From assembly GCA_963726375.1 (NCBI GenBank), contig CAVSCE010000010.1:30351-94350 (forward strand): a stretch of DNA of 64,000 nucleotides. The letters are read 5' to 3'. Source of the DNA: an uncultured Chloroflexia bacterium (GTDB lineage Bacteria; Chloroflexota; Anaerolineae; Anaerolineales; UBA4823). Positions within the stretch are counted from its first letter, which is position 1, and each line of letters starts with the position of its first letter. A program made the position numbers and the translations under genes. The notes beneath the pieces were generated by a model. That model searched no databases and was not told the DNA's origin. It saw only the letters and a list, made by a program, of their open reading frames with translations. Below, piece by piece: positions 18,557 to 43,731 of this stretch.

Positions 18557-20183
18557 TTATTCCGGTGGTGTGAATAGGGCTTTATCTTCCCCAATCTCCG
18601 CTTCAATCAGCGCATTGAGTTTTTGGTTCATGGTCGATAATAATTCTTCACTGTACTTGGGATTGGTCGGGTTGGCCAGATTATCCATCTCCTCAGGATC
18701 CAGCAACAGATCGTAGAGACCAGTATCATTATCGGCCTGCAGCCGCTCAACCGAGGGGGGCAGGTTGAAATGGCCCAGTCCAAAGTAACGGACCAGCTTG
18801 TATCGACCATCGAAAACACAACGGAATATCTCTCGTTTATCCGGGTTTGGCAAGCCGACCTCGTCCAGCATGCCGATAAACAACTCCAGACCGCGATGGA
18901 ACTCCTGGCCTGCCTGAGCGGCGGCCTGGTCGAACACCTTGGGAGCGTTGCGGTTAAGCCATTCCGCGTCGATGGTGGCGATCATATCGTAGGTCAGCAG
19001 GCAGCCCTTACCAGGTTCTGCGCTGCTGCCGCGCGGTCCGTCAGAGGTGGGCGTTTCCACCACGCCTGAAAGATCATATCCTTTCAGGGCTGGGTAGCGC
19101 TGCCGCAGCTCGGCCTCCGGCAGGCCAGCATAAGCCAGGATGGTGGGAACCAGGTCGAGATGAGAACCCACCGCATCCGTCCTGGCTCCGCCGGGGCGGC
19201 GCGGATCGACGATCACCAGAGGCACGTTGACGGTTTCCCGGAAAGCCACGCTGCCTTTTTGGCGCAGGTGATGGGCGCCTCCCATCTCGCCGTGATCGGC
19301 GGTAAAAATGATGACCGTGTTATCAGCCTGGCCGGACGCTTCCAGGGCATCCAGCACCGCCCCGATGTGCCGGTCGACATCCAGCATGCAGTTGAGGTAG
19401 TAGTTGACATGGTTGTGCCACATATCCCGGCGATCCATTGGAATCCGACCGTAGGCCACGTCACTCAGGCGTTTATAATTGCGGACGGCTGGCGGCTGTC
19501 CCTCGAGGTCGTCAAAGAAGGAGGCCGGTAAGGTTGTCGGCCATTTCTGGTTGTAAAGCGGCGTATCGGGCGCGTTAAAAATCGGGAACATGCCCTTGAC
19601 CTGCACCATCTCTTCAGCGTCGGTATCGAAATACATGATATCGTGAGGGTTGACGAAGTTCACGGTCATGTACCACGGTTGGGCGGCAGCGACTTCAGGG
19701 GCGCGCTTCGTCAGCCAATCGACGGCATCAGCCGCAATCAATGGATCTTTTTTAACGCCATCCATCGGCGCGCCTTGCGCATCGCCCCATTCCTGGTAGT
19801 CAGAGAAGCCGTAGGGTTCCATGGCTTCATGGGTGTCCCCAGCCGGAAACTCGGAGAGGTGCCATTTGCCTTTATAGGCGGTATAGTAGCCCAGATCACG
19901 CAGCATATGACCGATGGTGGGCAAGGCCTCCGGATCTGCCCGCATATCATCGATCCAGGCGAAATTGGTATTGTCAAACATGCGGGTGTGCGGCGTATGC
20001 CTGCCAGTGTAACATCACCGAGCGGGAAGGGGTGCATACGGTGGTGGTGGCATGGTGATTGTTAAAGGTGACCCCCCGGGCATAGATACGATCCCGGTTG
20101 GATAAAACAAAACCCGCCGGCAAAGACTGGTGGGCATATTCCTGATCGGTCACGATCATAAGGATATTGGGGCGATTAGGCAT
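18557..20183 (-). CDS. Formylglycine-dependent sulfatase (one frameshift near 20000)
   Basis: PNILMIVTDQ, CTPSR formylglycine motif, GYYTAYKGKWHL, NPHD, FTADHGE. Confidence 0.9.
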
Positions 20184-20425
20184 AATTCCAGGTTCCTCCT
20201 GATTTTTTTGGTTTATCGTAATAGTATATCCCACGTCGAGCATTTTCGATCATTATTTTCACCACAAAGGGTGATGATTTTGACAATCTTGGTTTAAGCA
20301 TAGCATATTTTCCTCCAGCCTGCAATAAATTTAGTGATTCACTTTCACAAATTGGGGCATCTGGTATGGTTTTTTCGGTTAGGTTTAAATCAAAACAACG
20401 GGTTGAGCCATGAAGGGTTATATTC

Positions 20426-20710
20426 CTAAGACAAACTTTTTTCATATATCTCTCGATAAGGATATTTTTCAGAGAGCTTCATCACCACACTTCTGGCCGT
20501 TCTGATGATCTTCCAGGCCAGAAAAATGAAGTTACCGCAGAGCATGGTTTTGATGTGGTTCATTTTGATTTTGTTGGTGGAGGCGTTCTCAAAAACCAGG
20601 TCGTGATCAATCAGGTCAAAAATCCCATTTTTATTGGCATGTTCCAACAATAGAAATAACCCGGCATTGGAGGTGAGATTTCTGGCTGAGAATTCGATTT
20701 TATTAATCAA
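20426..20710 (-). mobile_element. Internally deleted IS1380-family transposase remnant
   Basis: IS1380-like N-terminus (IEFSARNLTSNAGL) fused directly to an IS1380-like C-terminus (FIFLAWKIIRTARSVVMKLS); no DDE core; AT-rich; ends not resolved. Confidence 0.65.
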
Positions 20711-21366
20711 GGCAACATCCTATTCTGCAGAAATTCTTTTCCTAAAGATTTTAACAGGCTGTCTGGAGTGGCTGTCATTTCTTTTACCCAATGGGTGAAT
20801 GCATGAGTTTGATGACAAATTCCAAACAATCTCCCATGTGGGTTAATAGTAGCGATTTTTGCTGAAAATTGACGGAAAATCAGCTCAAATGGCCCATTTA
20901 TACATCGAAAGTGGGGCTTTTATAAAAATGCACTTCTTTGACCGATTCAGGGACGTAGAATCCGAGTGTAATAAATTTCAGGCGTTCGCCGATCGCACGG
21001 CCAGGCTCGCCGCATCGGCCAAACCAGTCGCTCTAAATCCCGGTGCTCCGCTCGACCTCCGGCTTTTGTTCTTCGTAATAACGTCTTCAGTCCTTCTCCC
21101 CGATCCATTCGCATTCTATCTGCATCCTTGCCTTCCACAACCTGATTGAGCCAGGCTGCAGCCTTATTCAGCGCATAACCATAATCACCCTTTCACGCTC
21201 TTGTAAGGTTGTTGTAATCTTTGCCGATTAAACTATCGATGTCCCCCAGAGTTGACTTAAGCTTGCCGAAGCAGCCGAAATCCAACCCCGGGAATTGAGC
21301 CGATTAATCAACGCAGTGGCCAAAAGATTACCGATACAATCTTTAGAGGTTATGACACGAAGGAGC

Positions 21367-22343
21367 ATGAAAATGATTAAGATCAAATCTTCCGAGATCA
21401 CGCCGGAACATCTTTATCTCAACCGGCGGGATTTTCTCAAAAGCCTGGGGATTCTTTCTGGAGCCGCGGCCCTGCTGGCCGCCTGCAAAGGGCAGCCCCC
21501 CGCCAGCCCGCTCGAAACCGGCGCCCCGGTCGGTGCCGTCTCGCAGACCGAAGCGCCTGCAGCCGCAGCCGCCGGCGACGAGCTCGGCGATCCCCTCACC
21601 AGCTTCGAAGACGTCACCAATTACAACAACTACTACGAGTTTTCAACCGACAAACGAGCGCGTCGCAAAGCTGGCCGAAGGCTATCCGACCTCTCCCTGG
21701 GAGGTCGCGGTCGCCGGCCTGGTCAGCAATCCGAAGGTCTACTCTGTCGACGACCTGCGCAAATTCGAGATCGAAGAGCGCATCTACCGCCTGCGCTGCG
21801 TGGAAGCCTGGTCGATGGTGATCCCCTGGCTGGGATTCCCCTTGCACCGGCTGCTCGAAGAAGTCGAGCCCAAACCCGAGGCAAAATATGTGCGCTTCGA
21901 GAACGATCTACGATCCGGACGGCATGCCCGGGATCAAGGCCAGCCCCTGGTATCAGTGGCCCTACATCGAAGGTCTGCGGGTGGACGAGGCCATGAACGA
22001 CCTGACGATCATGGCGACCGGTCTCTACGGAAAAGACCTGCTGCCGCAGAACGGCGCCCCCCTGCGGCTGGTGGTGCCGTGGAAGTACGGCTTCAAGAGC
22101 ATCAAATCGATCGTCAAAATCGAGCTGGTCGAAGAAATGCCCACTTCGCTGTGGATGGCTGCCGCCCCGAACGAGTACGGTTTCTATGCCAACGTCAACC
22201 CCGAGGTCGACCATCCCCGCTGGTCGCAGGCCAGCGAGCGCCGCATCGGCGAGGTCGGGCGCCGCGATACCTTGATGTTCAACGGCTATGAAGATGAAGT
22301 CGCCGGGCTCTACGCCGGGATGGATTTGAGCGTCAACTATTAG
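21367..22343 (+). CDS. msrP: Protein-methionine-sulfoxide reductase catalytic subunit (frameshifted)
   Basis: SEITPE...NRRDFLK Tat signal, [53 protein letters not shown]. Confidence 0.93.
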
Positions 22344-22390
22344 AAAAGCCGCCCAAAACAGCTTCAATCGCAGCTTCTCGGACCGCAGCG

Positions 22391-23080
22391 ATGGCTTCTC
22401 TGAACACGAACATGAAGAACTTCAAGACCACCCCCCTCCAGATTGCCGCCTACATCGCCGGCCTGATCCCGCTGTTGTCGCTTGGCTACGATTTCTGGCA
22501 GGGGAGCCTGGGCCCGGACCCGATCCGCGCTCGCCACCCTGCGCACCGGCAAAGCAGCCCTGATCATGCTGGTCGCCTCCCTGGCCTGCACGCCGGTCAG
22601 CAACTTTTCGGTTATAAGCCCGCCATCAGGCTCCGCCGCCCGCTCGGCCTGTTCAGCTTCATGTACGCCGCGATCCACTTTGCGATCTTCATCGCGCTGG
22701 ATTATGGCTTCGATTTCAGCCTGATCCCGGACGCGCTGCTCGAAAAGCGCTATGCGCTCGCGGGGTTGATCGCCGGCTCGATCCTGCTCCTGCTGGCGCT
22801 CACCTCCACCCAGGGCTCGCAGCGCCGCCTGAAACAGAATTGGAAGCGCCTGCACAGGCTGGTCTACCTCGCCTCCGTCCTGGCGGTCGTGCATTTTATC
22901 TGGCTGGTCAAACAGGGCGTGCTGGAGCCGTGGATCTGGGCGCTGGTGGTGCTCCTGCTGCTGGCGCTGCGCATCCCGCCGATCAAAAAAGCGGTCGGCA
23001 GCCTGCACGGGCTGGTCCAGAAATCGGCTGGTGGCAAAATTCGACCCGGCGCAAACCGGCCTCCCGGGGGTGCGCCTTAG
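22391..23080 (+). CDS. msrQ: Protein-methionine-sulfoxide reductase heme-binding membrane subunit (frameshifted)
   Basis: RRPLGLFSFMYAAIH, LALTS, WKRLHRLVY, HFIW; directly follows msrP. Confidence 0.9.
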   Translation: MASLNTNMKNFKTTPLQIAAYIAGLIPLLSLGYDFWQGSLGPDPIRARHPAHRQSSPDHAGRLPGLHAGQQLFGYKPAIRLRRPLGLFSFMYAAIHFAIFIALDYGFDFSLIPDALLEKRYALAGLIAGSILLLLALTSTQGSQRRLKQNWKRLHRLVYLASVLAVVHFIWLVKQGVLEPWIWALVVLLLLALRIPPIKKAVGSLHGLVQKSAGGKIRPGANRPPGGAP

Positions 23081-23090
23081 CCCGAGCGCT

Positions 23091-24549
23091 TCAGCCCTCA
23101 ATCCCGGCGATCCGCTCGGCCATCCGCTTCCTTTTCCTCCAGTCCGGCCATCCGCCCCAGCTGGATCCGCTGCGCCATCGGCGAGCCCGCCCCGTGCAGC
23201 GATTCCACCAGGTAGCCCGCCGCGCCCGCCCCGATCGTCAGGTTTTCGATCAGCCGCAGCATCCGCTGGCGGTATTCCGTCGGGACTTCCTGCCTGCCGG
23301 CCAGGTAGCGGGTCAGCAGCGCTCCCGTTTCAGGGCTTTCAAAGTCAAGCTCGCTCGGCATCGTCGCCAGCAGCCCGCCGGCGATGTCCTGCGCCAGCCG
23401 GGCGATCTCGTACGGGCAGCGGGTCACGTTCAGCTTGCAGACGTTCGCCAGCCGCAGGTCGACCAGGTACGTCCCTGAATCCGTTCGCTGCCCCTCGCTC
23501 GAAGCCGCGATCCCGCAGGCGTACATCGTCTCGTTCAGGTGCACCATCTCGATCAGCTTGTCCCTGACATGCGAAGCCTGGGCGGTCCCCTGGCACCTTG
23601 CGATCGCCGATGCCGCCCCGATCAGCACGTCCCCCACCCCCACCTTGCAGCCGCCGTAGCTCGAGCGGTGGTAGCCGGCGAAGGTCTCCACCAGCTCCCC
23701 GGCAAACGCCGTCTCGCCGTGCATGAAGACCCGCTCCCACGGCACGAATACGTCCTGGAAGATCACCGCCGCTTCGTGTCCGCCGTAGCTCCAGTTGCCG
23801 ACGTCGATCCGTCCCTCTTCCAGCTTCCGCGTGTCGCTCGGCTGGCGGCCGAGCACGTACAGCGATCCCCTCGGCGTCCGCCGGCACGGCGCAGCAACCG
23901 CGTATTCCTGCTCCGATTCCTTCAAGGACGCGGGTCGGCATGATCAGCAGCTCGTGCGAGCCGATCGCGCCCGTCTGGTGCAGCTTTGCCCCGCGGATCC
24001 GGATCCCGTCCCGCTCCTCGGCCGAGACGTGCAGGTACAGGTCCGGGTCCGTCTGCTCGGAGGGCGAGCCGCGCGGTCTCCCTTCGGGTCGGTCATCGCC
24101 CCGCCCACCATCAGGTCCTGCTCCTGGATCATTCTTAGATAGGCCCTGAACCTGGGGTGGTAGCCGGTGCCGAGCCTCGCATCCATCTTGTGGGTCAGGA
24201 TATCGACCGCGTTGAACGCGTCCATCCCGACGCAGCGCTGGAAGCAGCAGGCGGTCCGCTGGCCGAGCAGCCGCTGCATCTTGATCTTCTTCACCAGGTC
24301 GTCCGCTGCTCTGGTGCAGGTGGGTGAAGCGGTTGACCGGCTCGCCCGTCAGGCTGGATTGGGCGCAGGTCAGCTCCGCATAACGCGGGTCGCGGCCGAT
24401 CGCGTATGTCTCGGCGGCCGCGTTGAGCGACGGGCGCAGCATCGGGTGGTCGGCGTACGCCTCCATCCGCTCCCCAAACCAGATAGACCCGCTTCTCCAT
24501 GCCTCCGCAGGCTGTCCAGGTATTCATCCTTCGTCTTAAGCGCCATCAT
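23091..24549 (-). CDS. abfD: 4-hydroxybutyryl-CoA dehydratase (HpaB/AbfD family; several frameshifts)
   Basis: CFQRCVGMD and YHRSSYGGCKVG Fe-S/His motifs, GAMTDPKGDR, GAKLHQTG, ESLHGAGSPMAQ. Confidence 0.85.
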
Positions 24550-24807
24550 GACCGTCCTTTCCGCTGGGACCTTCCCCTGCGGATATTATCGAGCAAATTC
24601 GAATGGATTTCAAGCCTTAAAATCCCGCTCCGACCGTTCAATCCTGATGAATCCCCGCTGAGGTCCACCGCCGCCGCCCATTTCAATCCCGGTCGTGCTG
24701 TTTTCCAGCCGCCAGCTTAGAACTGCCATGTGTCGATGGAGTAAAATCGAGAGATCGGGAGGGAGCGGCGATCGCGCTCTCCCGCAGGAGAAGAGTGTGG
24801 AGACAAG

Positions 24808-25282
24808 ATGAAGAAGATTGCATTGGTTTCAATATGGATATTTGTCATGCTCTTTTCGGCTGTGCCTGTCTCGGCGCAGGAGCCAGAACCTTTACCAGAA
24901 ATGAAGACACTCTATTTGCCGACCGTGATACCGCCCATGTGAAACAATAACGGCCGGAGCAGCAAACTGTATGTCTCAGTATTGTCAGGGAAACTCTTAT
25001 GCTGGCATAACAGTTTCTCCGCCAGGAATAAGTTTTTCTGTAAGCGAGCAGGTCTATTATCTGGGGGAAGAAATGCCGTCGCGTAGCAGCGGTGCGTATT
25101 CGAGCGCTGAAGGATGGGGCGGGATTTATTTCGATGTCCCATGGCCGCCAATTGCAGGGAGCGAAGTACGGGTGGCGATAACCTTCGAGAATGGCTGCGC
25201 GGCCGAGTACACAACCCAATATGTGTGTCGAATTCCTCCCCCGCCATGGGAAGACCAAGGCTGTGATCCATTAGGGGAGTGA
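24808..25282 (+). CDS. Small secreted Cys-framework protein, paralog 1 of 4 (frameshift near 24935)
   Basis: MKKIALVSIWIFVMLFSAVPVSA-QEPEPLPEMKTLYLPTVI, continuing into ORF 24971..25282 (SQYCQG...GSEVRVAITFENGC). Confidence 0.7.
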
Positions 25283-25283
25283 C

Positions 25284-25767
25284 ATGAAGAATTTTGCAGT
25301 TGCAATTATATTGATTTTTACTTTGCTCGATGTCTTCTATACCTGTCTCGGCGCAGGAGCCAGAACCTTTGCCGTCCATGAAGACGCTCTATCTTCCGGC
25401 AATTAGCCATCAGTGCGAGATCATTACTCTCGTAAGTGCCGGCCCTCGAACTTCTCAGTACGGCCAGGGGAACTCGTTTGCGTACATGACTATGGAGCCC
25501 ACATAACAGGGAGGATGGACCAAGGGTCGTAAGCGATCAGGCTTTTTATCGCGGCGAAGCAGTGCCGCACATGTCTGCTCAACTGGTCAACTATTTGGCA
25601 ATGGCGAAAATACAATGTATATGGAGGTTCCTCGCCCGCGCCTCGAAGGGAGCGATGTCGAAATCATCCTCGAGTTCGACAATGGCTGCAGTGTTGACTT
25701 GCACAAAGGGTATCACTGCATCGATCTGCCCTATCCTTTTGATATCTTTGAGTGCGATCAGCCGTGA
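25284..25767 (+). CDS. Small secreted Cys-framework protein, paralog 2 of 4 (frameshifted, possibly a pseudogene)
   Basis: MKNFAVAIILIF...QEPEPLPSMKTLYLPAISHQC...FYRGE...GSDVEIILEFDNGC...ECDQP, assembled across frames. Confidence 0.6.
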
Positions 25768-25780
25768 TCGACCCGTAGAG

Positions 25781-25827
25781 AATTGAAAAGAGGCCGGAGA
25801 AATCCGGCCTTTTCTTTTTGTTATAAT
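25781..25827 (+). promoter_or_regulatory. Repeated spacer: intrinsic terminator fused to an extended -10 promoter
   Basis: AAAAGAGGCCGGA-GAAA-TCCGGCCTTTTCTTTT then TGTTATAAT; near-identical copy at about 26313-26359. Confidence 0.7.
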
Positions 25828-25851
25828 CAATCTAAGAATTTAGGCGGCGAC

Positions 25852-26295
25852 ATGAAGAATTCCGCAGTTGCAATCATCTTGATTTTTGCTTTGCTCGTGT
25901 CTGCTGTGCCAGCCCCGGCCCAGGAACCGTTCCCCCTGCCAGAGAACAACTTGCTTTTCTTTCCTGCCGTGATCCGCCCTTGCGAGACCTTCTGGATAGA
26001 AGTCGCCGGCAACTGCACGCACCAGTATTGTATGGGATCTAGTGATATCTTTTTTCATGTAGATCCTCCTGGAGCGGCCAGAATTATCGACACGCAGGTT
26101 TTCTACCTTGGCGAAGTTTTCCCTGCTGTACTGGATCCGTATTATTATTACTGGGGCACATATACTATATTTTTCTCGCCTATGACTGTCGTTGTCGGGA
26201 GCGAAATCCAGGTTGTGCTGTTCTTTGAGAACGGGTGCAAGGCTGATGCTACCACTGTATATACGCACAGTGACTTTTGCAAATGGTGCCCGTAA
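25852..26295 (+). CDS. Small secreted Cys-framework protein, paralog 3 of 4
   Basis: Intact ORF MKNSAVAIILIFALLVSAVPAPA-QEPFPLP...LFFPAVIRPC...NCTHQYC...GSEIQVVLFFENGC. Confidence 0.8.
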   Translation: MKNSAVAIILIFALLVSAVPAPAQEPFPLPENNLLFFPAVIRPCETFWIEVAGNCTHQYCMGSSDIFFHVDPPGAARIIDTQVFYLGEVFPAVLDPYYYYWGTYTIFFSPMTVVVGSEIQVVLFFENGCKADATTVYTHSDFCKWCP

Positions 26296-26312
26296 TGAAT
26301 TGGAAAAAAATG

Positions 26313-26359
26313 AATTGAAAAGAGGCCGGAGAAATCCGGCCTCTTCTTTTTGTTATAAT
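26313..26359 (+). promoter_or_regulatory. Second copy of the terminator plus extended -10 spacer
   Basis: AATTGAAAAGAGGCCGGAGAAATCCGGCCTCTTCTTTTTGTTATAAT. Confidence 0.7.
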
Positions 26360-26377
26360 AATTATTGCAGGAGTGAC

Positions 26378-26848
26378 ATGAAGAATTTCAGCTTTGTAAT
26401 CATCTTGATTTTTGCTTTGCTCGTGTCTGCTGTGCCTGCCCAGGCGCAGGAGCCAGCTCCGTTACCAGAGATCACTTCGCTTTATTTTCCGGTAGTAAAC
26501 CGTCCATGCAGCGAGACTTTCGATATTGGCTTTGCCGGGGACTGCCCGTACCGCCAATATTGCAAAGCGGCTTCTGTTGCTACCGGGGTGTTGCCGCTGC
26601 CAGACGGTGTTCATGTCGTAGCGGACAAGATCTATTACCGTGGAGAAGAAGTGCAGCTCCATAGACTCGAACTGGATCCTGGCCCTGACGACTATTATTG
26701 GGAGTGGTTCCAGCTTCCATTATCGGCATCGCCGGTCATCTACGGAAGCGAGGTGATAGTTGCGTTGAGCCTTGATAACGGATGCAATCTAAAGGCAACA
26801 TCAGAATATTTACCCAGCCCCAACCCTTGGAGCACTTGTACCTTATGA
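26378..26848 (+). CDS. Small secreted Cys-framework protein, paralog 4 of 4
   Basis: Intact ORF MKNFSFVIILIFALLVSAVPAQA-QEPAPLP...LYFPVVNRPC...DCPYRQYC...GSEVIVALSLDNGC. Confidence 0.8.
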   Translation: MKNFSFVIILIFALLVSAVPAQAQEPAPLPEITSLYFPVVNRPCSETFDIGFAGDCPYRQYCKAASVATGVLPLPDGVHVVADKIYYRGEEVQLHRLELDPGPDDYYWEWFQLPLSASPVIYGSEVIVALSLDNGCNLKATSEYLPSPNPWSTCTL

Positions 26849-27024
26849 GCGATGAGTACACCTGCGAAGAGACAGTCAGCCAGCCCTACAACAACTGCAA
26901 ATTCAGCGCAGGGTTCGTGCAGGGGCATCCGGTTGATACGCTGTTCCTTCGCCTGGATCGCCTGAAGCAGGAAATATCTTCATCCTCTTCGTGTTCTTCG
27001 CGCCCTTGGCGGTTCAATCTTTAA
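26845..27024 (+). CDS. Short hypothetical protein, possibly truncated
   Basis: ATGA overlap with the paralog 4 stop; MSDEYTCEETV...HPVDTLFLRL; 3' end runs into a 9-mer repeat. Confidence 0.3.
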   Translation: MSDEYTCEETVSQPYNNCKFSAGFVQGHPVDTLFLRLDRLKQEISSSSSCSSRPWRFNL

Positions 27025-27139
27025 ATCCAAGCCGTAATCCCAGGCCGTCGTCCCCACACCAGCTTCAATCATTCAATTCCCACCTCAAAAAGCATCACAT
27101 TGTGGTAAATTATCCCCAAACAAAATGGGAGGTGGAAAC

Positions 27140-28126
27140 ATGGCAAAGCCCTGCATTCTGGTCGGAGACGTCGGCGGCACCAAGACCGAGCTGGCGCTGT
27201 TCCCGGCCGGCGAAGCCCCCGGGAAGCCGCACCGAAAAATCTCATACCCGAGCCAGGATTACGGCTCGCTTGAAGCGGTCCTGGAAGAATACCTGGCCGG
27301 CCAGGACAGCCCGGTCGAGCGCGCCTGCTTCGACGTCGCCGGCCCGGTCGTGGAAGGGCGCTCCCACATCACCAACCTGCCCTGGAAGCTCGACTCCCGC
27401 CAGCTCGCAGCGAAGCTGGCCGCCCCGGTCGTCCTGATCAACGACATGGACGCCCTCGCCCAGGCCGTCGCCCACATCGGCCCGGGCGACCTGGAAGTCC
27501 TGCTGCCCGGTTCGCCCGTCGCCGGCGGAGCGCGCGCGGTGATCGCCCCCGGCACCGGCCTGGGCGAAGGCTTCCTGGTTTGGGCGGACGGCCGCTACCT
27601 TCCTTACGGCTCAGAAGGCGGTCACACCGATTTTGCCCCGCACGGCCAGCTCCAGATCGACCTGCTGCTCTACCTCCACGCCCGCTTCGGCCACGTCAGC
27701 TACGAGCGCGTCTGCGCCGGGATCGGCATCCCGAACCTGTACGACTTCCTGAAGGACACCGGGCGCTATCCCGAGCCGGAATGGCTGGCCGAAGCGCTGA
27801 GCCAGGCCCCCGACCGCACCCCGCTGATCGCCCATGCCGCGCTGGAAGGGCGGGCAGGGATCTGCGAGGCGACCCTCGACCTGTTCACCGCGATCCTCGG
27901 CTCGGAAGCCGGCAACCTGGCCCTCAAAGTCCTCGCGGTCGGCGGGGTCTACCTGGCGGGCGGCATCCCGCGCCGGATCCTGCCCTGGCTCCGCAACCCG
28001 CAGTTCCGCCAGTTCTTCACCGACAAAGGCCGCTTCACCGAGATCCTCGAGCGCATCCCGGTCAGCGTCGTGATGAACCCGGACGCAGCCCTGCTCGGCG
28101 CCGCCTGGAGGGCGCTTGAAAGCTGA
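27140..28126 (+). CDS. glk: Glucokinase
   Basis: GDVGGTKT, VAGPV, ITNLPW, LINDM, APGTGLGE, SEGGH, SYERV, GGVYLAGGI. Confidence 0.93.
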   Translation: MAKPCILVGDVGGTKTELALFPAGEAPGKPHRKISYPSQDYGSLEAVLEEYLAGQDSPVERACFDVAGPVVEGRSHITNLPWKLDSRQLAAKLAAPVVLINDMDALAQAVAHIGPGDLEVLLPGSPVAGGARAVIAPGTGLGEGFLVWADGRYLPYGSEGGHTDFAPHGQLQIDLLLYLHARFGHVSYERVCAGIGIPNLYDFLKDTGRYPEPEWLAEALSQAPDRTPLIAHAALEGRAGICEATLDLFTAILGSEAGNLALKVLAVGGVYLAGGIPRRILPWLRNPQFRQFFTDKGRFTEILERIPVSVVMNPDAALLGAAWRALES

Positions 28127-31100
28127 ACTCCCCACAGGCACCATCACCTTCCTTTTCACCGACATCGAGGGCAGCACCAGGCTTTGGCAGCAGCACCCCG
28201 ACGCGATGCCGAACGCGCTCGCGTGCCATCATGCGATCTTGAACGAATCGATTACCGCACACGGTGGCTATGTCTTTCAAATCATCGGCGACGCGTTCTG
28301 CGCGGCATTCTCGACGGCAACCGATGGGCTCGAAGCCGCGCTTGCCGCGCAACGCGCGCTTCGCGATGCAACCTGGGGCGAAACAGGCGCGATTCGTGTG
28401 CGGATGGCACTGCACACCGGGACGGCGGATGTGCGCCTCGGCGAACACACCTCCGGTGAATATGTTTCAGGTTTGACGTTGAGCCGGGTGGCGCGATTGC
28501 TCTCTGCCGGGCACGGCGGGCAAATCTTGCTTTCGCTTCCGACGGCCGAGCTCGTGCGCGATCAATTGCACCCTGAAACCGTTCTCCGCGATCTGGGCGC
28601 ACATCGGCTCAAAGATTTGGTCCGCCCGGAACATATTTTTCAAGCCGTCGTCCCCGATTTGCCCGCTGAATTCCTGCCGCTGAAAACCCTCGACACGCAT
28701 CCCAACAATCTGCCGATTCAACTCACAAGTTTCATCGGCCGCGAGCAGGAGATGGCGCGTGTCAAGGAAATTCTGAACGGGACCCGGCTCGTTACGCTCA
28801 CCGGTGCAGGCGGGGCGGGCAAGACGCGCCTCGCGATCCAGGTTGCGGCTGACCTTATCGATGAATTTCCCGATGGCGTGTGGTTCGTCGAATTTGCGCC
28901 GCTTTCCGACCCCACGCTTGTTCCGCATATCGTCGCCGCAGCGCTGGGTCTGCAGCTGCAATCCGGACGTACAATCCAGATTAGCATTGACCGAATACTT
29001 GGAGCGGAAAAATTGTCTGCTCCTGTTCGACAACTGCGAGCACTTGATTGACGCCTGTGCGAGACTCGCCGATGCGCTTTTGCGCGGCTGTCCCAATCTG
29101 AAAATATTGGCGACGAGCCGCGAAGTGTTCGGCATCGCGGGCGAAGATATCTACCATGTGCCGTCGCTGGCAATCCCATCCCTGGAGACGCCGAATGTCC
29201 AAGCGCTGACGCAGTACGAGGCAGTGCGCTTATTCATCGACCGAGCCGTGACGATCCAACCTGATTTTGCGGTCACGAATCAAAACGCGCCTGCGGTCGC
29301 GCAGATTTGTTATCATCTGGATGGAATTCCACTCGCGATCGAGCTTGCGGCGGCGCGGGTCAATGTCCTCTCCGTCGAACAAATCTCCGAGCGTCTGGTT
29401 GACTGTTTTCGCTTGCTGACAGGCGGAAGTCGCACCGCGCTGCCGCGCCACCAGACGCTGCGTGCCCTCATCGATTGGAGCTACAGCTTGCTTTCGCCAG
29501 CCGAACGGATCTTGCTCGAGCGCCTGTCAATATTTGCGGGAGGATGGACGTTGGAAGCCGCGGAAAGCATCTGCGCAGGAGATGGGATCGAAAGTTTTGA
29601 GGTGCTCGATCTGCTTCAAAATCTATTAGCCAAGTCGCTTGTCTTCGTGGGCGAAGGCGTCGATGGGCGGGTTCGCTATCGCTTGCTGGAGACGATTCGG
29701 CAGTATGCGCGTGAAAAACTTGTCAATTCAGGGCAGCTCACAAATTTTCGCAATCGCCATCTCGATTGGTTCTTGGATTTCGTTGAGCAGGCGGATCCGA
29801 AATTGTTTAGCGGTGAGCAGGTGGCCATGTTGAACCGCCTGGATGCAGAGCATGACAATTTTCGTGCCGCGTTGGCGTGGTCGATGGAAACCGAGATAGA
29901 GAAAGGACTGCGGTTAGCTGCAGGTCTGGACCGTTTTTGGACTTTTCGCGGCCATTGGTTCGAACAGCGCGACTGGCTCATGAAATTGCTCGCCCAACCA
30001 GGTGCGAATACCCCAACCAGGACTAGAGCGAAAGCATTGATATTACGTGGGAATATTGAAGCAAGACAGGGTGAATTAGTCGATGCGGAGAAGAGTTACG
30101 CAGAGAGTATGCAGATATACCGACAGCTTGGCGATGAAAATGGTATCGCTGAAGCTTTATGTGAATTAGCGTTTCTCGAAATCCGACAAAGGAAATTTAT
30201 CGCGGGCGGGTGAATTATGTCAGGAAAGTCTGGATATTGCTCGAAAAACGGAAAATAAGAACCAGATTTTTGAAACCTTATTAAACGTCTTGCATATGTT
30301 CTGCGCCGTCAAGGTGATCGGACAGGGGCGGATGAATTGCTGAAGGAGAGTCTCGCTCTTTTCCTGCAGATGGTTGATATGGGATCTATCCAGAATTTCT
30401 ATGCCGGTCCTGCATCCTAAAATCTTTATAGCCTCTCGCTGATAATGAGCTTGATCAAGGAAATTTTGAAAGGGCGCGCAAGTATTTTGAAGATGGACTG
30501 GCTTTTTGCCGTAAGACGGGAAGTTCTCATAACATTTCGTGGTTTTTGCGTTACCTGGCAAATCTTTCCAGGCGTGAAGGAGACCTGGATCGCGCCCAGG
30601 CTCTTTACCAGGAGAGCCTGCAAATTGTGCAGGATTTGAAAGACAAACATTGCACGGCGCATACTCTGGATGGCCTGGCGCAAGTTGAGTATGGAAAAGG
30701 CAGCTTCGAACAAGCCGCATCACTCGCCCGTCAAGCCTTGAATTTGGGTGAGCAGGTTGGGAGTAAGCTGCGATACGCCCAAGCACAATCGACTTTGGGG
30801 CTTGCCATGCTGCATGCTGACCCGAGCGGCGCGGAGCAGATCTTGAAATCGAGTCTCACGGTTCAAAACGAACTGCGAAACAAACAGGGCATCGCTGACT
30901 CGCTCGAGGCGCTCGCAAAATTGAATTCGTTCAGCGGAGCGTTCGAACGCGCAGCCAGGATGTTCGCCGCCGCGAGCGTCCTGCGCGAGACGATCTCTTT
31001 TGCACCGACGCCCGCTGAAAGCTCGGAATTTGATCGCGATCTGAGTACTCTGCGAGCGGAACTCGGAGATGAAGCGTTCACCGCTGCATGGGATGAGGGT

Positions 31101-31163
31101 CGCAAAATGCCGTTGGAGCAAGCGGTAAATTTCGCTCTGCGAGGAAACGCTCGTTTGAGATGA
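28116..31163 (+). CDS. Class III nucleotidyl cyclase + STAND/NB-ARC-like ATPase + TPR protein (frameshifted)
   Basis: TFLFTDIEGST, IGDAFCA, VRMALHTG; NLPIQLTSFIGRE, LTGAGGAGKTRL, DNCEHL, GIPLAIELAAAR; TPR-like helical C-terminus. Confidence 0.88.
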
Positions 31164-31361
31164 TCCTGTGCAGGGCTGAACCGCCGCATGCGCTGAACTT
31201 CCTTCGGCTGGAGATGCAATATGCATGCGTTGGAGAAGCGGATCGTGCAGCAGTTGACAGGTATTTACCCTTATAGAAAGCGTCGTCGTAATCGACTGCG
31301 GTCGCATGCCTAACGGATGATCTGGGCTATATAGTCTCCCGCATCACCGCCGCTTCTTACT

Positions 31362-31452
31362 GCCAACAGCTAACCACCAGCAACCAATCACCAGCAACCA
31401 ATCACTAACAACCAATCACCAATTGCCAATCACTAACAACCAACAACCAACT
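31362..31452 (+). repeat. Degenerate heptamer tract, 13 units of RCYAAYH (C/A-rich on +)
   Basis: gccaaca gctaacc accagca accaatc ...; followed by a TATAAT box at about 31467. Confidence 0.85.
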
Positions 31453-31637
31453 ACCCCAAACCGCGCTATAATCAAACATCCATCTTATTTTGAACGAACC
31501 AACCGAATAATTACTGGTTTCTCATTAGGGAAGAGACTTAGGGCAGGAGTTGCGTGTGCTTTGATCGATGCCCGCATGGGCGTCTGTTTTCGTTCATTAT
31601 TCTTCCAAATTTGCGTCTCGCTGCAAGGAGGGAAGCT

Positions 31638-34600
31638 GTGAAGACAAACCTGAATTTCCGCTCGAACGTCGTTTCCTTGATCCTGATCGTTGGCCTGCTG
31701 GCGCCGGTTTCTTTCGCCAGTGCAAACCCAGTCAATGCCCCCCAGGACTCGACCTGCACTGCGCCGCCGCAGGGCATCCTCTCCTGGTGGTCGGGCGACG
31801 GGCACCCCTTCGACCTGGTCGGCGAAAACGACGCGACCCTGACGAACGGCGCGACCTACGCCAGCGGGATGGTCGGGCGCGCCTTCAGCTTCGACGGGGT
31901 GGATGACTATCTCAGCGTCCCCAACAGCGCCAGCCTGCAGGCGATCGGAGACCATTTCTCGATCGAGGCCTGGGTCAGGCCGGAGAGCCTTCCGTCTGGC
32001 GATCCCTATTACGATAAAGGGATCGTCGTTCGTGAAGGCTACGTCCGAGGATTTGCCTTGGCGACCAGAGGCGCGGCGTTCGGGATGTGGATCGGCGGCG
32101 CCAGCGGCACGGGTCTGACCGCAGTCAGCAGCCCGGTGACGACCGACCGCTGGTACCACGTCGTCGGCACCTACGATGGTTCCGATGCCAGGATCTACGT
32201 GGACGGCGAGCTGGAAGGCACCCGGACCGCTCCCTTGATCCATTACGATACTCCGCTCATGATCGGCACGTCCCAAATCAACGAGCGCTTCTTCGACGGC
32301 CAGGTCGACGAAGTCACGATCTACACCCGCACGCTGACTCGCGGAAGAAATTTCGACCCTCTCCGGCGGCTGCACATCCTCCGCTCCAACAGACATGGTG
32401 CTCTACTGGCCCTTCGACGAGGGGACGGGCGCAACCCTCGACGACCTGATGGGCTCCAACGACGGCACGCTCACCAACGGGCCGGTCTGGACGGCGGGCA
32501 AGATCGGCAAGCGCGCTCAGCTTCGACGGTTCGGACGACTAAGTCGCCATCCCGGACGCAGCCTCGGCGCTGCTGAAGAACGACGCCGGCGCGATCTCGG
32601 TCTGGGTCAACCCGTCCTCGATGGGCGGGAATGACGTGATCGTCGGGTTTGGAGACACCGGCACGTCGCTATGGATCGACGATCGGCTTGGGCGATCTGG
32701 AACGTACGTGCGCCCGTGGCATTGTATTGGCGGCTGGGATTGGGATTCCACCACCCCCGTCAGCGCGAACGTCTGGACCCACCTGGCATACACCTGGGAC
32801 AGCACAACCGAATATATCTATAAAAACGGTCAGTTTACCGAAAGCCGCCCCAGGAATTTCAATTACATCCCCGGCCAGGCCCGCATCGGCAATGGCTGGT
32901 GGGGCGACCCCGCCAATGCCTACCCCGGCCTGATCGACGAGCTGAAGGTCTTCGACCGCACGCTGACCGCCGGGGAAGTTGAATCCCTGTTTGAGCTCAG
33001 CTGCCCGGGCAAGTGCAAGCCCTGCTTCCCGCCGCCGGATGAGATGGTCTCCTGGTGGCCTTTCAACGAAGACGAAGGAACTTCCGCTGAAGATATCATA
33101 GGTTCGAACGACGGCGCTCTCCATGGTGCGCTCTGGGCTGCTGGAAAAGCAGGCAACGCCCTCAGCTTTGACGGGACGGATGACTACGTCTCCACGCCCG
33201 ACAGCCCGCTCTGGGACCTGGGCGGCGCCGATTTCACGCTCGAGGCCTGGGTCAATCCTGCCGACACGGCAGGCGTCAACCGCCTGATCTCGGCGGGGGG
33301 TCAGAATGACGGCGCGAACAACCTCTGGTCCTTTGGCTATGGAACCCACGCGGATTGGGGCAGCGGGAACCGGCTTAGCCTGGATTATTACAATGGAAGC
33401 GGGTACACCCACCTCCATTCGGACGAGGTCAAATTGGGCCTCGGCCTCTGGAACCACCTCGCATTCGTGCGTTCCGGCGCATCGCTGAGCTTCTATCTCA
33501 ACGGCTTCCCCGCGGGCAGCCAGGATCTTGGTACCGTCGCCCTCGGCGGCGGCAGCACCGGCGCGATTATCGGAGCCCGCTACCTCGATGGACCTTCATC
33601 CGTGGTCGAATTCGCGAATGGCCTGATCGACGAAGTCGGGCTCTACCAGCGTGCCCTCTCTGCCGCAGAGATCGCCGCGATTTACGCCGCGGACTGCAGC
33701 GGGAAATGCATCCCAGATACCACCTCGCCTGAAGTGGTTTCGATCGTCCGGGCGGATCCAGATCCGACCAACGCCTCGAGCGTCGATTACTCGGTCGCGT
33801 TCACCGAGCCGGTGGCGGGTGTAGACGTGGATGATTTCAACCTGACGGCGACCGCCGGCCCGAACAGCAGCCCCATTTCCAGCGTGATCGATTCGGGCGA
33901 CCACACGGTCTTCACGGTTACGGTCGAGATCGAGCCGGAATTCGCCGCGGTCCGCCTGAATATCGTCGAGCCGGTGACCATTGCCGATCTTTCAGGCAAT
34001 CCGCTCGTAGGGCTGCCGTTTTTCGGGGAGACTTACACGATTGACCGGGTTGCCCCTGGCGTCGTCTCGCTCGTTCAGACTTCTCACAATCCGACAAACG
34101 GCGGCAGCGTCGGGTATACGCTCGAGTTCTCTGAGGTCGTCAAGGGGGTTGATGCGAGTGATTTCGAGCTCACGACAGCCGGGACGATCCTGGGCGCCTC
34201 GTTCGAATATATTGTCGAGCACCCGGACCAGAGCGGGTTCGATTTCATGGTGGACCCCGGGTCCGGCGAAGGGACGATCCGCCTGGACATCCCCCTCGAC
34301 GCCGAGATCACCGACCTTGCCGGCAACCAGCTGTCTGACCTGCCTTTCACTTCTGCCGAAGCGTATGTCGTCGACCGCACCGCCCCCTATGTCGTGTCCA
34401 TCACCCGCCTCGACCCCAGCCCGTCGTTCCAGAGCAGCGTCGATTACCAGGTCGTCTTCTCCGAGGCGGTTGAAAGCCTCACCGAACAGGACTTCTACCT
34501 GACGACGACCGGCACGCTCGGGGCCCTGCCTGTGTTCCCCATCCTCGCGCCGCTTGACCGCACCACCTGGACGGTCACGGTCAGCACCGGCACGGGCAGC

Positions 34601-41975: not shown

Positions 41976-43731
41976 CTTCACCAGAGGTAGCTCAGCCGCT
42001 GCCCAGGCGCCAATTCCACCAGCCAGGTTGCGGACTTCCGTCCAGCCCAGCATGCGCAGGACCAGCAGGCCGATCCCGCCGCGGTGCCCGGACTGGCAGG
42101 TGAGCACGACCGGGGCCGCCTTCTCGGGCAGCAGGGTCATGTCGGCGAGCAGAGTGTTGATCGGCATATGTACGGAGCCTTCGATGTAGCCAGTGGCCCA
42201 TTCTTCGTCGGTGCGCAGGTCGACCACCAGCGGCTTGGTCTCGGAGGCCAGCTCGGTGTTCAGGTCGGCGGCTTTGACCGGTGAAGTATCCTTCCGGCAG
42301 GGCTGAGAAGAAAGCGTCCAGGTCGCGCAGGCGGGTCGGGTCCACCTCGGGTGCTGTACCGGCCGCAGGCGCCTCAGGAGCGCCAGTCTCGACGGGCAGC
42401 TCGGCCTTCTTCCAGGCGCCAATCCCGCCGGCCAGGTCCTTGACATCGGTATACCCCAGCACCTGCAGCGCTGCCATCGCCATTCCGCCGCGGTGGCCGG
42501 AAGCGCAGTAGACCACGATCGGTTGGTCGAGCGCGGGCAGCTTGTCCAGGTTCTTGAACAGTTCTTTGACCGGGATATGGACTGCGCCGGCGATGTAGCC
42601 GTCTGCTTCAAGCTCGGCAGCATCGCGGACGTCCAGCAGGAATGGCGCAGCTTCGACCATCTGTGTGTTCAGGTCAGCGGCCTTCACCGTGTAAAAGCCT
42701 TCAGGCAGCGCGGCCAGGTATTCGGACCACACCGTTTGCCAGTCCACCCAGCCGGCGACCGGCAGCTTGGCGGCTTTCCAGGCGCCCATGCCTCCGTTCA
42801 GGTTCGAGACGTTCTCCCAGCCCATCATTCTCAAGGCTGGCATCGCAAGCCCGCCCCGGTAGCCGGGAGCGCAGACCAGTCCGATCGGTTGGTCCTTGGC
42901 GGGGAGCTTGTCCAGGTTGGCCATCAGCTCGGCGAACGGGATGTTGACGCGCCTTTGATGTAGCCGTCTTTGTTCCATTCTTCAACCGTGCGCAGGTCGA
43001 TGATCGTCGGAGGAGTGCTCGAAGCGAGCGCTTCGTTGAACGCATCGGCCTTCATACCGTAGTAGCCTTCCGGCATCGCGGTCAGGCAACTTGTCGAAGG
43101 CGGTGAAGAGCGCCTGGTCCTCGACGATCGGGGTGCTGATCGCTTCGCCGGCCGGGGGCATCTCGCCGGTGACGGCTGGCTGGCTGGCCTTAAGCCATTC
43201 GCCCATCCCGCCGCTCAGGTTGCGTACATTCGTATAGCCGAGCGATGTCAGAATCGGTTCGCGATCCGCCGCGGTAGCCGGAAGCGCAGTAAACGACGAT
43301 CGGGTCGTCGAGCCCGGGCAGCTTGTCCAGGTTCTTCAGCAGCTCTTTGATCGGGACGTTCACCGCGCCGGCGATGAAACCGTCTTTCTCGATCTCGGCC
43401 GCGTCGCGTACGTCCAGCAGGAAGGGCGGCTTGTCGGCGAGCTCTTCACTGAGCGCCGGAGCGGTGACGGTCGCAAGCTTCTTGTCGGCGATCGTTGGGA
43501 AGGTCTCGGTGAAGACCGCTTCGAGGTCAAGTGGGACTTCGGTCGGAGCTGGCGGCTCGGTCGGAACCGCAGTGGGGATCGGGGCTTCGGTGGCTGCCGG
43601 AGCGGGCGCCTGCGGTCGCGACGACTGCGACGGTCGCCTGCACCTCTGCGGGGGCTGCCGGCACGCACGCGCCCAGCAGCATCGTAAGCGGCGATCATGA
43701 GTGCAAATAACGGGTACAGTTTCTTAATCAT
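41973..43731 (-). CDS. Lipoprotein with four tandem rhodanese (sulfurtransferase) domains (frameshifted)
   Basis: MIKKLYPLF...LLGAC lipobox, Pro/Ala/Thr linker, repeated LLDVR/DLRT...G.I.G, active-site loops YCASGYRG, VCAPGYRGG, YCASGHRGG, TCQSGHRGG, and NL.GG..AW. Confidence 0.85.

Follow-up and report, generated by a model that had tools for sequence, protein, structure and literature searches.

A rare tandem array of small, putatively exported proteins with a predicted Ig-like domain and an N-proximal YLP-like box in an uncultured Chloroflexota bacterium

The DNA analyzed here, referred to as the window, is a stretch of 64,000 nucleotides (nt) from contig C10 (CAVSCE010000010.1, positions 30,351 to 94,350) of assembly GCA_963726375.1, an uncultured Chloroflexia bacterium. 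At 24808-26848 of the window, on the + strand, four homologous units follow one another head to tail. Copy 1 runs from the ATG at 24808 to the stop ending at 25282, copy 2 from the ATG at 25284 to 25767, copy 3 from 25852 to 26295 and copy 4 from 26378 to 26848. Open frames are found for copies 3 and 4 only, which encode intact proteins of 147 amino acids (aa; P0001) and 156 aa (P0002), respectively. When the whole genome bin was searched with copy 4, copy 3 was recovered with E 1.8e-28, the body and N-terminus of copy 1 with E 1.9e-9 and 7.6e-8, and the N-terminus of copy 2 with E 1.3e-4; beyond the four array copies there was only one chance-level match (E 0.08). Read through, with X at the frame breaks, the four proteins are 38-47% identical in all pairings.

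The proteins share one anatomy from end to end. By inspection, all four begin with MK[NK] and about 17 hydrophobic residues, followed by VSA, APA or AQA, and thus look exported by means of a Sec-type leader with an AxA site. A QEPxPLP linker is present in 4 of 4 copies and leads into a short box resembling the YLP-box of Chloroflexota, after which come, in order, the anchors RPC (HQC in copy 2), C..QYC (R..QYG in copy 2), [YF]YxGE and GS[ED][VI]x[VI]..[FL][ED]NGC. The four framework cysteines in RPC, C..QYC and NGC probably pair as two disulfides, and one or two further Cys follow NGC in each of the four window copies. The conserved residue types are Cys, Gly, Pro, aromatic residues and Glu/Asn, with no catalytic or metal-binding residues among them. 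The segment between YxGE and GSE is the most variable stretch and also varies in length; it is rich in aromatic residues in copies 3 and 4. In base composition, the array (GC 0.49) differs from its flanks (0.63-0.71), and its GC at third codon positions (GC3) is 0.47-0.60 compared with 0.67-0.88 in eight neighboring genes, placing it among the lowest-GC 2.3% of 2-kb windows within the 64-kb window.

An earlier note on this DNA, made from the letters alone, had described four head-to-tail paralogs of about 150 aa with shared anchors, and had taken them to be secreted proteins with a disulfide-stabilized beta fold in a region more AT-rich than its surroundings. The paralogy, the anchors, the AT-richness and the look of an exported protein all held up on analysis, and the Cys framework together with an all-beta model of copy 3 (below) speaks for the proposed fold type. 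The units are indeed homologous, but only copies 3 and 4 are open, and the Cys framework regarded as fixed is a feature of the family of which copy 2 has lost two members. Likewise, the Tyr/Trp-rich runs quoted in the note do occur, but in copies 3 and 4 only, and Tyr and Trp together make up 7-11 of the 104-117 mature residues. The signal-peptide DNA, which was called near-identical, turned out to be 65-88% identical.

The family is very rare and lineage-restricted. Consistent with the earlier note, which did not recognize it, no family was matched by copies 1, 3 and 4 in Pfam at E <= 1 or by the array proteins in NCBIfam at E <= 10, PHROGs and PADLOC gave no match, and a sequence profile search of the PDB returned nothing at E <= 1. 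Against 1.84 billion representative proteins, the family profile retrieved 13 at E <= 1e-3: the window's own three, a single protein here called P0006, and nine repeat-bearing proteins, of which eight are 915-7,068 aa long and one is 210 aa. P0006 (155 aa, E 1.6e-9), encoded on a 1,697-bp metagenome contig, is the sole full-length relative outside the contig and has the same leader, linker, four framework Cys and a box, LFLPFI. When 5.8 billion proteins were searched by word index with P0002, P0006 and the family alignment as queries, only the window's own proteins and P0006 came back. Further arrays, for which the note had suggested a profile search, were not seen, either among these representatives or in 460 other Chloroflexota genomes: the best match in 60 related genomes had E 0.04, the weak matches there (E 0.04-0.8) being leader-like or due to chance, and 400 genomes spread over the phylum gave none at E <= 0.01. 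A pattern search of genome contigs with P0001 yielded 98 pattern matches with no relative among them, and a viral and phage contig collection held none for P0002 or P0006. One metagenome locus found with P0006 (L021) is unrelated; only the leader is common, and inspection of its open reading frames (ORFs) shows a CHRD/PEP-CTERM-like protein. Leads from the ESM Atlas, the best being a Chloroflexota cluster (0.79) and DUF4879 (0.78), were both below the level that the tool treats as more than a lead. Pieces of the array itself occur at 88-100% identity in contigs of four metagenome runs. As an orphan, the family is in itself of local interest.

The mature domain of about 100 residues is predicted to be a generic Ig-like beta-sandwich, an assignment of fold class only. 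Copy 3 was modeled with AlphaFold on an alignment that included P0006, and the model reached a mean predicted local distance difference test score (pLDDT) of 78.6 and a predicted template modeling score of 0.62. It consists of a leader helix (residues 3-17), a low-confidence linker (18-45) and eight strands (46-136), with pLDDT 80-95 over residues 45-140. The copy 4 model is also all-beta, with a pLDDT of 59 that leaves little weight to the fold list obtained from it. When the copy 3 model was compared with 48,161 chains by VIA-align, 374 chains had Z >= 5 and the best was 7dnm_B at Z 8.6; the top 50 listed (Z 6.2-8.6) are mostly Ig-like sandwiches, with those below 7dnm_B at about Z 6-7.8 and including S-layer, FlaF/G, Fc, FnIII and similar domains. 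Two other kinds of protein on the fold lists were set aside, namely copper chaperones (PCuAC, CopC), as no His/Met motif is conserved in the array, and the beta subunits of C-glycoside deglycosidases (7dnm_B and similar), which are cytoplasmic partners of an enzyme absent here.

Among sequence families, the closest likeness, a weak one, is to the CHU_C-associated Ig_7 (PF19081) repeats and the PKD-like repeats of giant adhesins of the type IX secretion system (T9SS). Pfam was run on six of the eight long profile-matched proteins (P0007 and P0009 lay outside the scan) and identified Ig_7/PKD in three (P0010, P0012 and P0013), Big_2 in one (P0008), cadherin-like/Big_9 in one (P0011) and, in P0005, a repeat-driven mix of unrelated families. 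Both kinds of domain have a beta-sandwich unit of about 80 residues, a predicted one in the array, that runs from one Cys to a G..Y.V.V.D.NGC hairpin, and the family profile reaches the adhesins through summed repeats. The array proteins, secreted and of 12 kDa, differ in having one domain instead of tens of repeats, in their extra N-terminal strands and second Cys pair, and in having neither a Pfam match nor a T9SS C-terminal domain.

The box lies at residues 35-42 of 147-160, three residues ahead of the folded domain, and follows the pattern [LF][YF][LF]Px[VI]xR. A regular expression for linker-flanked boxes of exported proteins (hydrophobic-[YF]-[LF]-P-x-[LIV]-x-[RKNQH]) picks it out in copy 2 (LYLPAI, 25387-25404, without the closing Arg), copy 3 (LFFPAV, 25954-25971) and copy 4 (LYFPVV, 26480-26497), all on the + strand; LYLPTV in copy 1 (24910-24927, +) fits the consensus once the frame break is read through. 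The YLP-box of Chloroflexota has the same short form hydrophobic-[YF]-[LF]-P-hydrophobic-hydrophobic-x-[RK] and likewise sits beside a flexible linker on exported proteins, but at the extreme C-terminus, whereas the array box comes just past the signal peptide. In the genome bin, regular-expression boxes within six residues of the stop number 38, compared with 3 for a reversed-pattern control. N-proximal matches after a leader-like start number 9, compared with 1 for the reversed control.

Seven other proteins of the genome, collected in two regular-expression runs, share the layout of leader, Gln/Glu/Pro linker, box and domain (C8:16651-18192, C8:331274-332302, C9:109699-110544, C9:870929-872431, C9:578853-579791, C9:221432-222184 and C12:97253-98185). 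Glycoside-hydrolase-like and FGE-sulfatase-like enzymes are among them, as named by sequence inspection. Four of these seven N-proximal boxes pass NF053834 (ultrashort_CTERM; 10 positions, cut-off 10 bits), a model that exceeds its own cut-off in 10 of 14 control genomes and is thus unspecific in six-frame use. For one of the enzymes, a protein of 514 aa, the 24 best homologue loci were inspected: a regular-expression YLP box is present in 2, variants recognized by eye in 2 more, and a lipobox-like Cys with a Pro/Thr linker takes the place of the box in 10. Because relatives of this enzyme carry a membrane anchor at that place, the N-proximal box may, by analogy, retain its protein at the cell surface. 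Taken together, the array, the seven other N-proximal boxes and the anchored relatives suggest that the motif holds proteins at the surface from either end, and such either-end action, if true, would constrain the possible mechanisms of the YLP-box. The array would be the smallest natural cargo found for this motif in Chloroflexota, a 12-kDa single domain with the box on its N-terminal side. We regard the N-proximal form of the YLP-box as a more useful by-product of this work than the family itself.

The 5' ends of the copies are markedly more alike than the rest. Signal-peptide DNA is 65-88% identical between copies, compared with 33-53% in the variable stretches; the coding block of copy 4 (26378-26446, +) matches 25852-25920 at 60 of 68 positions and is less like 25284-25352 and 24808-24876. 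By the Nei-Gojobori method, the proportion of synonymous differences (pS) in the mature part is 0.66-0.83, i.e., saturated in all six pairs, and in the QEP-to-RPC stretch 0.52-0.87, saturated in most pairs. The leader offers only about 16 synonymous sites; there, copies 3 and 4 have a pS of 0.16, pairs that include copy 2 give 0.27-0.36, and copy 1 gives 0.51-0.57 when compared with copies 3 and 4. Since synonymous sites are saturated except in the leader DNA, the copies appear to be old tandem duplicates whose 5' ends have been kept alike, through either gene conversion or selection acting on the signals for expression and export. For the same reason, the ratio of nonsynonymous to synonymous substitution rates (dN/dS) between copies is not estimable.

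Conservation extends to the intergenic DNA. A 48-nt element follows copy 2 (25780-25827, +; terminator-like site at 25788-25813) and recurs after copy 3 (26312-26359, +) with 47 of 48 positions identical (98%). A genome search found it at these two places only. It is composed of a GC-rich hairpin, a T-run and then TTGTTATAAT, and has the appearance of an intrinsic terminator with a -10-like box behind it. Such a terminator-like element precedes copy 3 as well as copy 4. Copies 1 and 2, in turn, look co-transcribed, since the ATG of copy 2 lies one base past the stop of copy 1. Rfam matches at the terminators were far below gathering scores, and RNAalifold on the four sequences (-13.4 kcal/mol, covariation -0.38) lent no support to RNA structure as the cause of the 5' conservation.

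The frames of copies 1 and 2 are broken. In copy 1, one extra base near 24930 creates an in-frame TGA at 24940, and the domain resumes in the next frame: the leader, QEPEPLP linker and LYLPTV box are in window frame 1, and the body is in frame 2 (24929-25279, 117 aa open). Copy 2 has three frame breaks (at about 25329, at about 25500 and in 25574-25600), a TAA at 25504-25506 and substitutions of two framework Cys (R..QYG in place of C..QYC). A contig from metagenome run X2, covering 25464-25670 with 23 other letters, carries an additional base after 25505 and after 25513 and lacks one at 25574 and at 25579. By arithmetic, these indels shift the frame from 1 to 2 and back, which is the path demanded by homology to the paralogs, and the first of them breaks the TAA. 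The metagenome contigs cover neither the copy 1 break nor the first break of copy 2. Frame breaks are also common elsewhere in the assembly. Near the array, three frames are needed to read HpaB, and two each for MsrP, the cyclase/STAND gene and a rhodanese gene; frames are broken in window regions 21377-24523, 28077-30210 and 41976-42981 and at C14:324773-328940. In the same bin, rpoC is in two frames and rpoB is whole, and two same-genus genomes (G005 and G001) have the same kind of breaks. Such breaks have the look of erroneous indels introduced by the assembly method. Because neighboring genes and rpoC are broken as well, and because the X2 indels restore the homologous path, we do not take the breaks of copies 1 and 2 at face value, and infer that they are at least partly assembly errors. 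In general, a frame break in GCA_963726375.1 should be taken as the mark of a pseudogene only when sequencing reads support it.

Our preferred reading, held with moderate confidence, is that the array encodes exported, disulfide-braced proteins of a single Ig-like domain that are held at the surface by the N-proximal YLP-like box, serve as surface-structure or adhesion modules, and descend from old duplications with homogenized 5' ends. The analysis shows four paralogs with a common motif architecture, an all-beta model, a rare family and saturation of synonymous sites outside the leader DNA. A Sec-type signal peptide would direct export, after which the box would dock the domain at the surface, as the C-terminal YLP-box tags would do for many other exported proteins of this genome. 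The Ig-like domain could then act as a surface-structure or adhesion module, a role suggested because of the weak likeness to the Ig_7/PKD adhesin repeats. The 5' ends of the old tandem duplicates, i.e., the terminator/-10 element and the leader, would owe their likeness to gene conversion or selection. The family is new, and the kind of protein is familiar.

Several results weigh against this reading. The Z scores under about 8 that make up most of the fold list are in the range that VIA-align calls common, and Foldseek found nothing in the PDB at E <= 0.001 with the copy 3 model. Pfam Ig_7 does not match the array proteins. The adhesin repeats each align from their Cys to the G..Y.V.V.D.NGC hairpin, and single repeats score 2-7 bits. 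An hhalign comparison of the family with 69 such repeats gave a probability of 89% and E 2.4e-6 over 76 columns (within columns 60-139), an E-value inflated by circular choice because the template repeats were cut from the family's own profile matches. For this reason, a distant kinship with Ig_7/PKD repeats is kept as a lead, with no claim of homology. Cysteines beyond the four of the framework vary in number (copy 4 has five in total, P0006 four), which bears on the disulfide pattern, and copies 1 and 2 may be real pseudogenes after all. With regard to the box, six-frame genome searches at E <= 10 gave 22 matches for NF050076 (sort_motif_YLP; 11 positions, cut-off 15 bits) and 29 for NF053834, mostly at C-termini and none in the array (C10:55158-57195). 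An hmmscan of the array proteins at E <= 10 did not report NF050076 either, in a program whose filters drop such short matches. By these models the array boxes are not members of the YLP-box and appear close to it by regular expression and position only. Finally, surface retention is putative for every YLP-box protein, and a full-text literature search found no paper using the term 'YLP-box' among those listed.

Among the alternatives, the earlier note had favored a diversified repertoire of binders, in which hypervariable aromatic loops sit on a fixed scaffold and the shared 5' blocks are recombination anchors through which mature domains are swapped. The homogenized 5' DNA next to a saturated remainder would fit this, as would the aromatic-rich, length-variable YxGE-GSE segment of copies 3 and 4 and the variation between strains. 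Compared with metagenome contigs, the window has 63 differences in 701 positions of copy 4 (four contigs) and 13 in 752 positions of copy 3 (five contigs), and within run X3 the counts are 22 of 250 for copy 4 and 0 of 151 for copy 3. Among the changes listed, which leave 39 differences outside the list, nonsynonymous and synonymous codons are about equally frequent (7:7, 7:5 and 5:4). A ratio near 1:1 implies, however, a dN/dS well below 1, and these contigs have a depth of about 2, are from mixed strains and leave parts of copies 1 and 2 uncovered, none spanning the array; the five sequencing runs listed each hold a small share (0.05-0.09 of sampled words). Relaxed constraint on a surface protein would be compatible with the strain changes. 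Within the mature domain, clustering of the conserved columns is not significant (p = 0.20 in a window-variance permutation, p = 0.06 for lag-1 autocorrelation), and the divergence is that of old paralogs, as synonymous sites are saturated, so that loops varying on a fixed scaffold were not borne out. As for the shuffling of cassettes at the 5' ends, the 5' DNA is markedly more conserved, as proposed, but neither silent cassettes nor further copies were found in the genome, the region 20000-32000 has no repeats in the array beyond a 135-nt 5' block and the 48-nt element and no pair of template and variable repeats, and a Pfam scan of 9327-42981 revealed no recombinase or reverse transcriptase. 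Recombinants at the shared 5' sequence were likewise not found, there being no joints in the thin cover of the metagenome contigs. We therefore consider a binder repertoire improbable, and the copies appear to have diverged without programmed diversification. Equally doubtful is a version in which the homogenized terminator/-10 and leader blocks anchor the exchange of whole Ig-like domains between copies and strains, every variant being docked to one common envelope receptor by its YLP-like box. If true, it would make the YLP-box a terminal docking peptide for either end of a protein rather than a sortase-type C-terminal signal. Roles of the array proteins in adhesion, as decoys or in immunity, as the note proposed, may be considered putative.

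A horizontally acquired island in decay, with copies 1 and 2 as pseudogenes and little present function, is rather unlikely, if somewhat less so than the repertoires. It would account for the low GC and GC3 of the array, the four frame breaks and the stop in copies 1 and 2, the two framework Cys lost from copy 2, the lack of relatives in the 60 related and 400 phylum genomes, and the putative remnant of an insertion sequence (IS)-type transposase about 4 kb upstream. In contrast, copies 3 and 4 are intact with all anchor residues kept and each has a well-kept terminator/-10 element, versions that are near-identical or 88-93% identical are maintained across four separate metagenome runs, and frame breaks are common in the assembly, rpoC included. 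Effectors released freely, without surface retention, for instance inhibitors of enzymes or antagonistic proteins, would also be small, disulfide-braced, strain-polymorphic and equipped with a Sec leader, and families of secreted effectors typically combine a conserved leader with divergence in the mature part. We give this alternative a slim chance: no partner, immunity or toxin gene lies beside the array, PADLOC and PHROGs gave no match, catalytic or metal-binding residues are not conserved, and the conserved N-proximal box would be left without a role. The proteins could also be subunits of a type IV pilin- or archaellin-like filament, with a class III leader and helix and a variable beta domain exposed on the fiber. 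Pilins are commonly encoded as tandem paralogs whose N-termini are conserved. Archaeal type IV pilins top the Foldseek results (E 1.4e-3 to 5.4e-3, 18-20% identity over about 150 columns, TM-score 0.39-0.43), and archaellins, including 9i5h from Chloroflexota, head the VIA-align list of the copy 4 model (pLDDT 59) at Z 8.3-8.6. Archaella of Chloroflexota have been reported (PMC12488501). Archaeal pilins and archaellins (e.g., 8q30, 6w8x, 8qx4 and 9i5h) resemble the modeled array proteins in a hydrophobic N-terminal helix and a small Ig-like beta domain, and the array in its tandem paralogs with conserved N-termini. However, the leader of the array proteins is short and of the Sec/AxA type, with a hydrophobic stretch of only about 17 residues (helix 3-17 in the model) and a Pro-rich linker where the pilin helix would continue, so that there is no long helix packed against the sheet. 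By inspection, no Gly/Ala-type prepilin site follows MKN or MKK. Alignments that span the helix have a high root-mean-square deviation (5.3-5.4 over 139-140 residues for copy 4 in VIA-align, 10.8-24.6 in Foldseek), and no pilus or archaellum genes were seen in the Pfam scan of 9327-42981. A filament subunit is thus highly improbable.

The genes flanking the array are unrelated housekeeping genes (HpaB-family, MsrPQ-like, glucokinase and cyclase/STAND). Contig C10 as a whole is rich in exported surface proteins, carrying 10 of the 38 C-terminal boxes as well as MtsC-like, TafC-like, CBM96 and Laminin_G_3 proteins. Glucokinase is the only gene shared in synteny with two same-genus genomes, and no island borders can be drawn. 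A 59-codon ORF (26845-27024, +) overlaps the stop of copy 4 by ATGA and has no Pfam or PADLOC match; it is doubtful that it is a gene. Its last part is a 37-nt GC-rich element (26985-27021). Contigs of runs X1, X3 and X4 contain the element again with unrelated flanks on both sides, once in tandem, and looser copies (4 mismatches over 25 nt) are found on C3 and C8. This element may be a small dispersed intergenic repeat.

The genome bin (contigs C1-C14) may mix two organisms. By GC, the contigs form two groups, one at about 0.50 (C6, C7, C9 and C13) and one at 0.58-0.59 (C1, C3, C4, C10 and C12), the window being on C10. The five contigs of the high-GC group account for about 0.40 of the 4.1 Mb and carry 26 of the 38 C-terminal YLP boxes. 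An M3 peptidase on C10 is 57-58% identical to those of same-genus genomes and 56-58% to those of other orders, and a gene on C8 is 90-91% identical to its counterpart in the same-genus genome G005. Upstream of the array, the short ORFs at 20176-20710 on the - strand, which resemble the N-terminus of an IS-type DDE transposase and which we take as a candidate mobile-element remnant, lie in a patch of 40-43% GC at 20000-21000. Downstream, a 14-nt tandem repeat (CCAGCAACCAATCA-like, five overlapping 28-nt copies) occupies 31363-31453, just upstream of the Laminin_G_3 and TafC-like genes.

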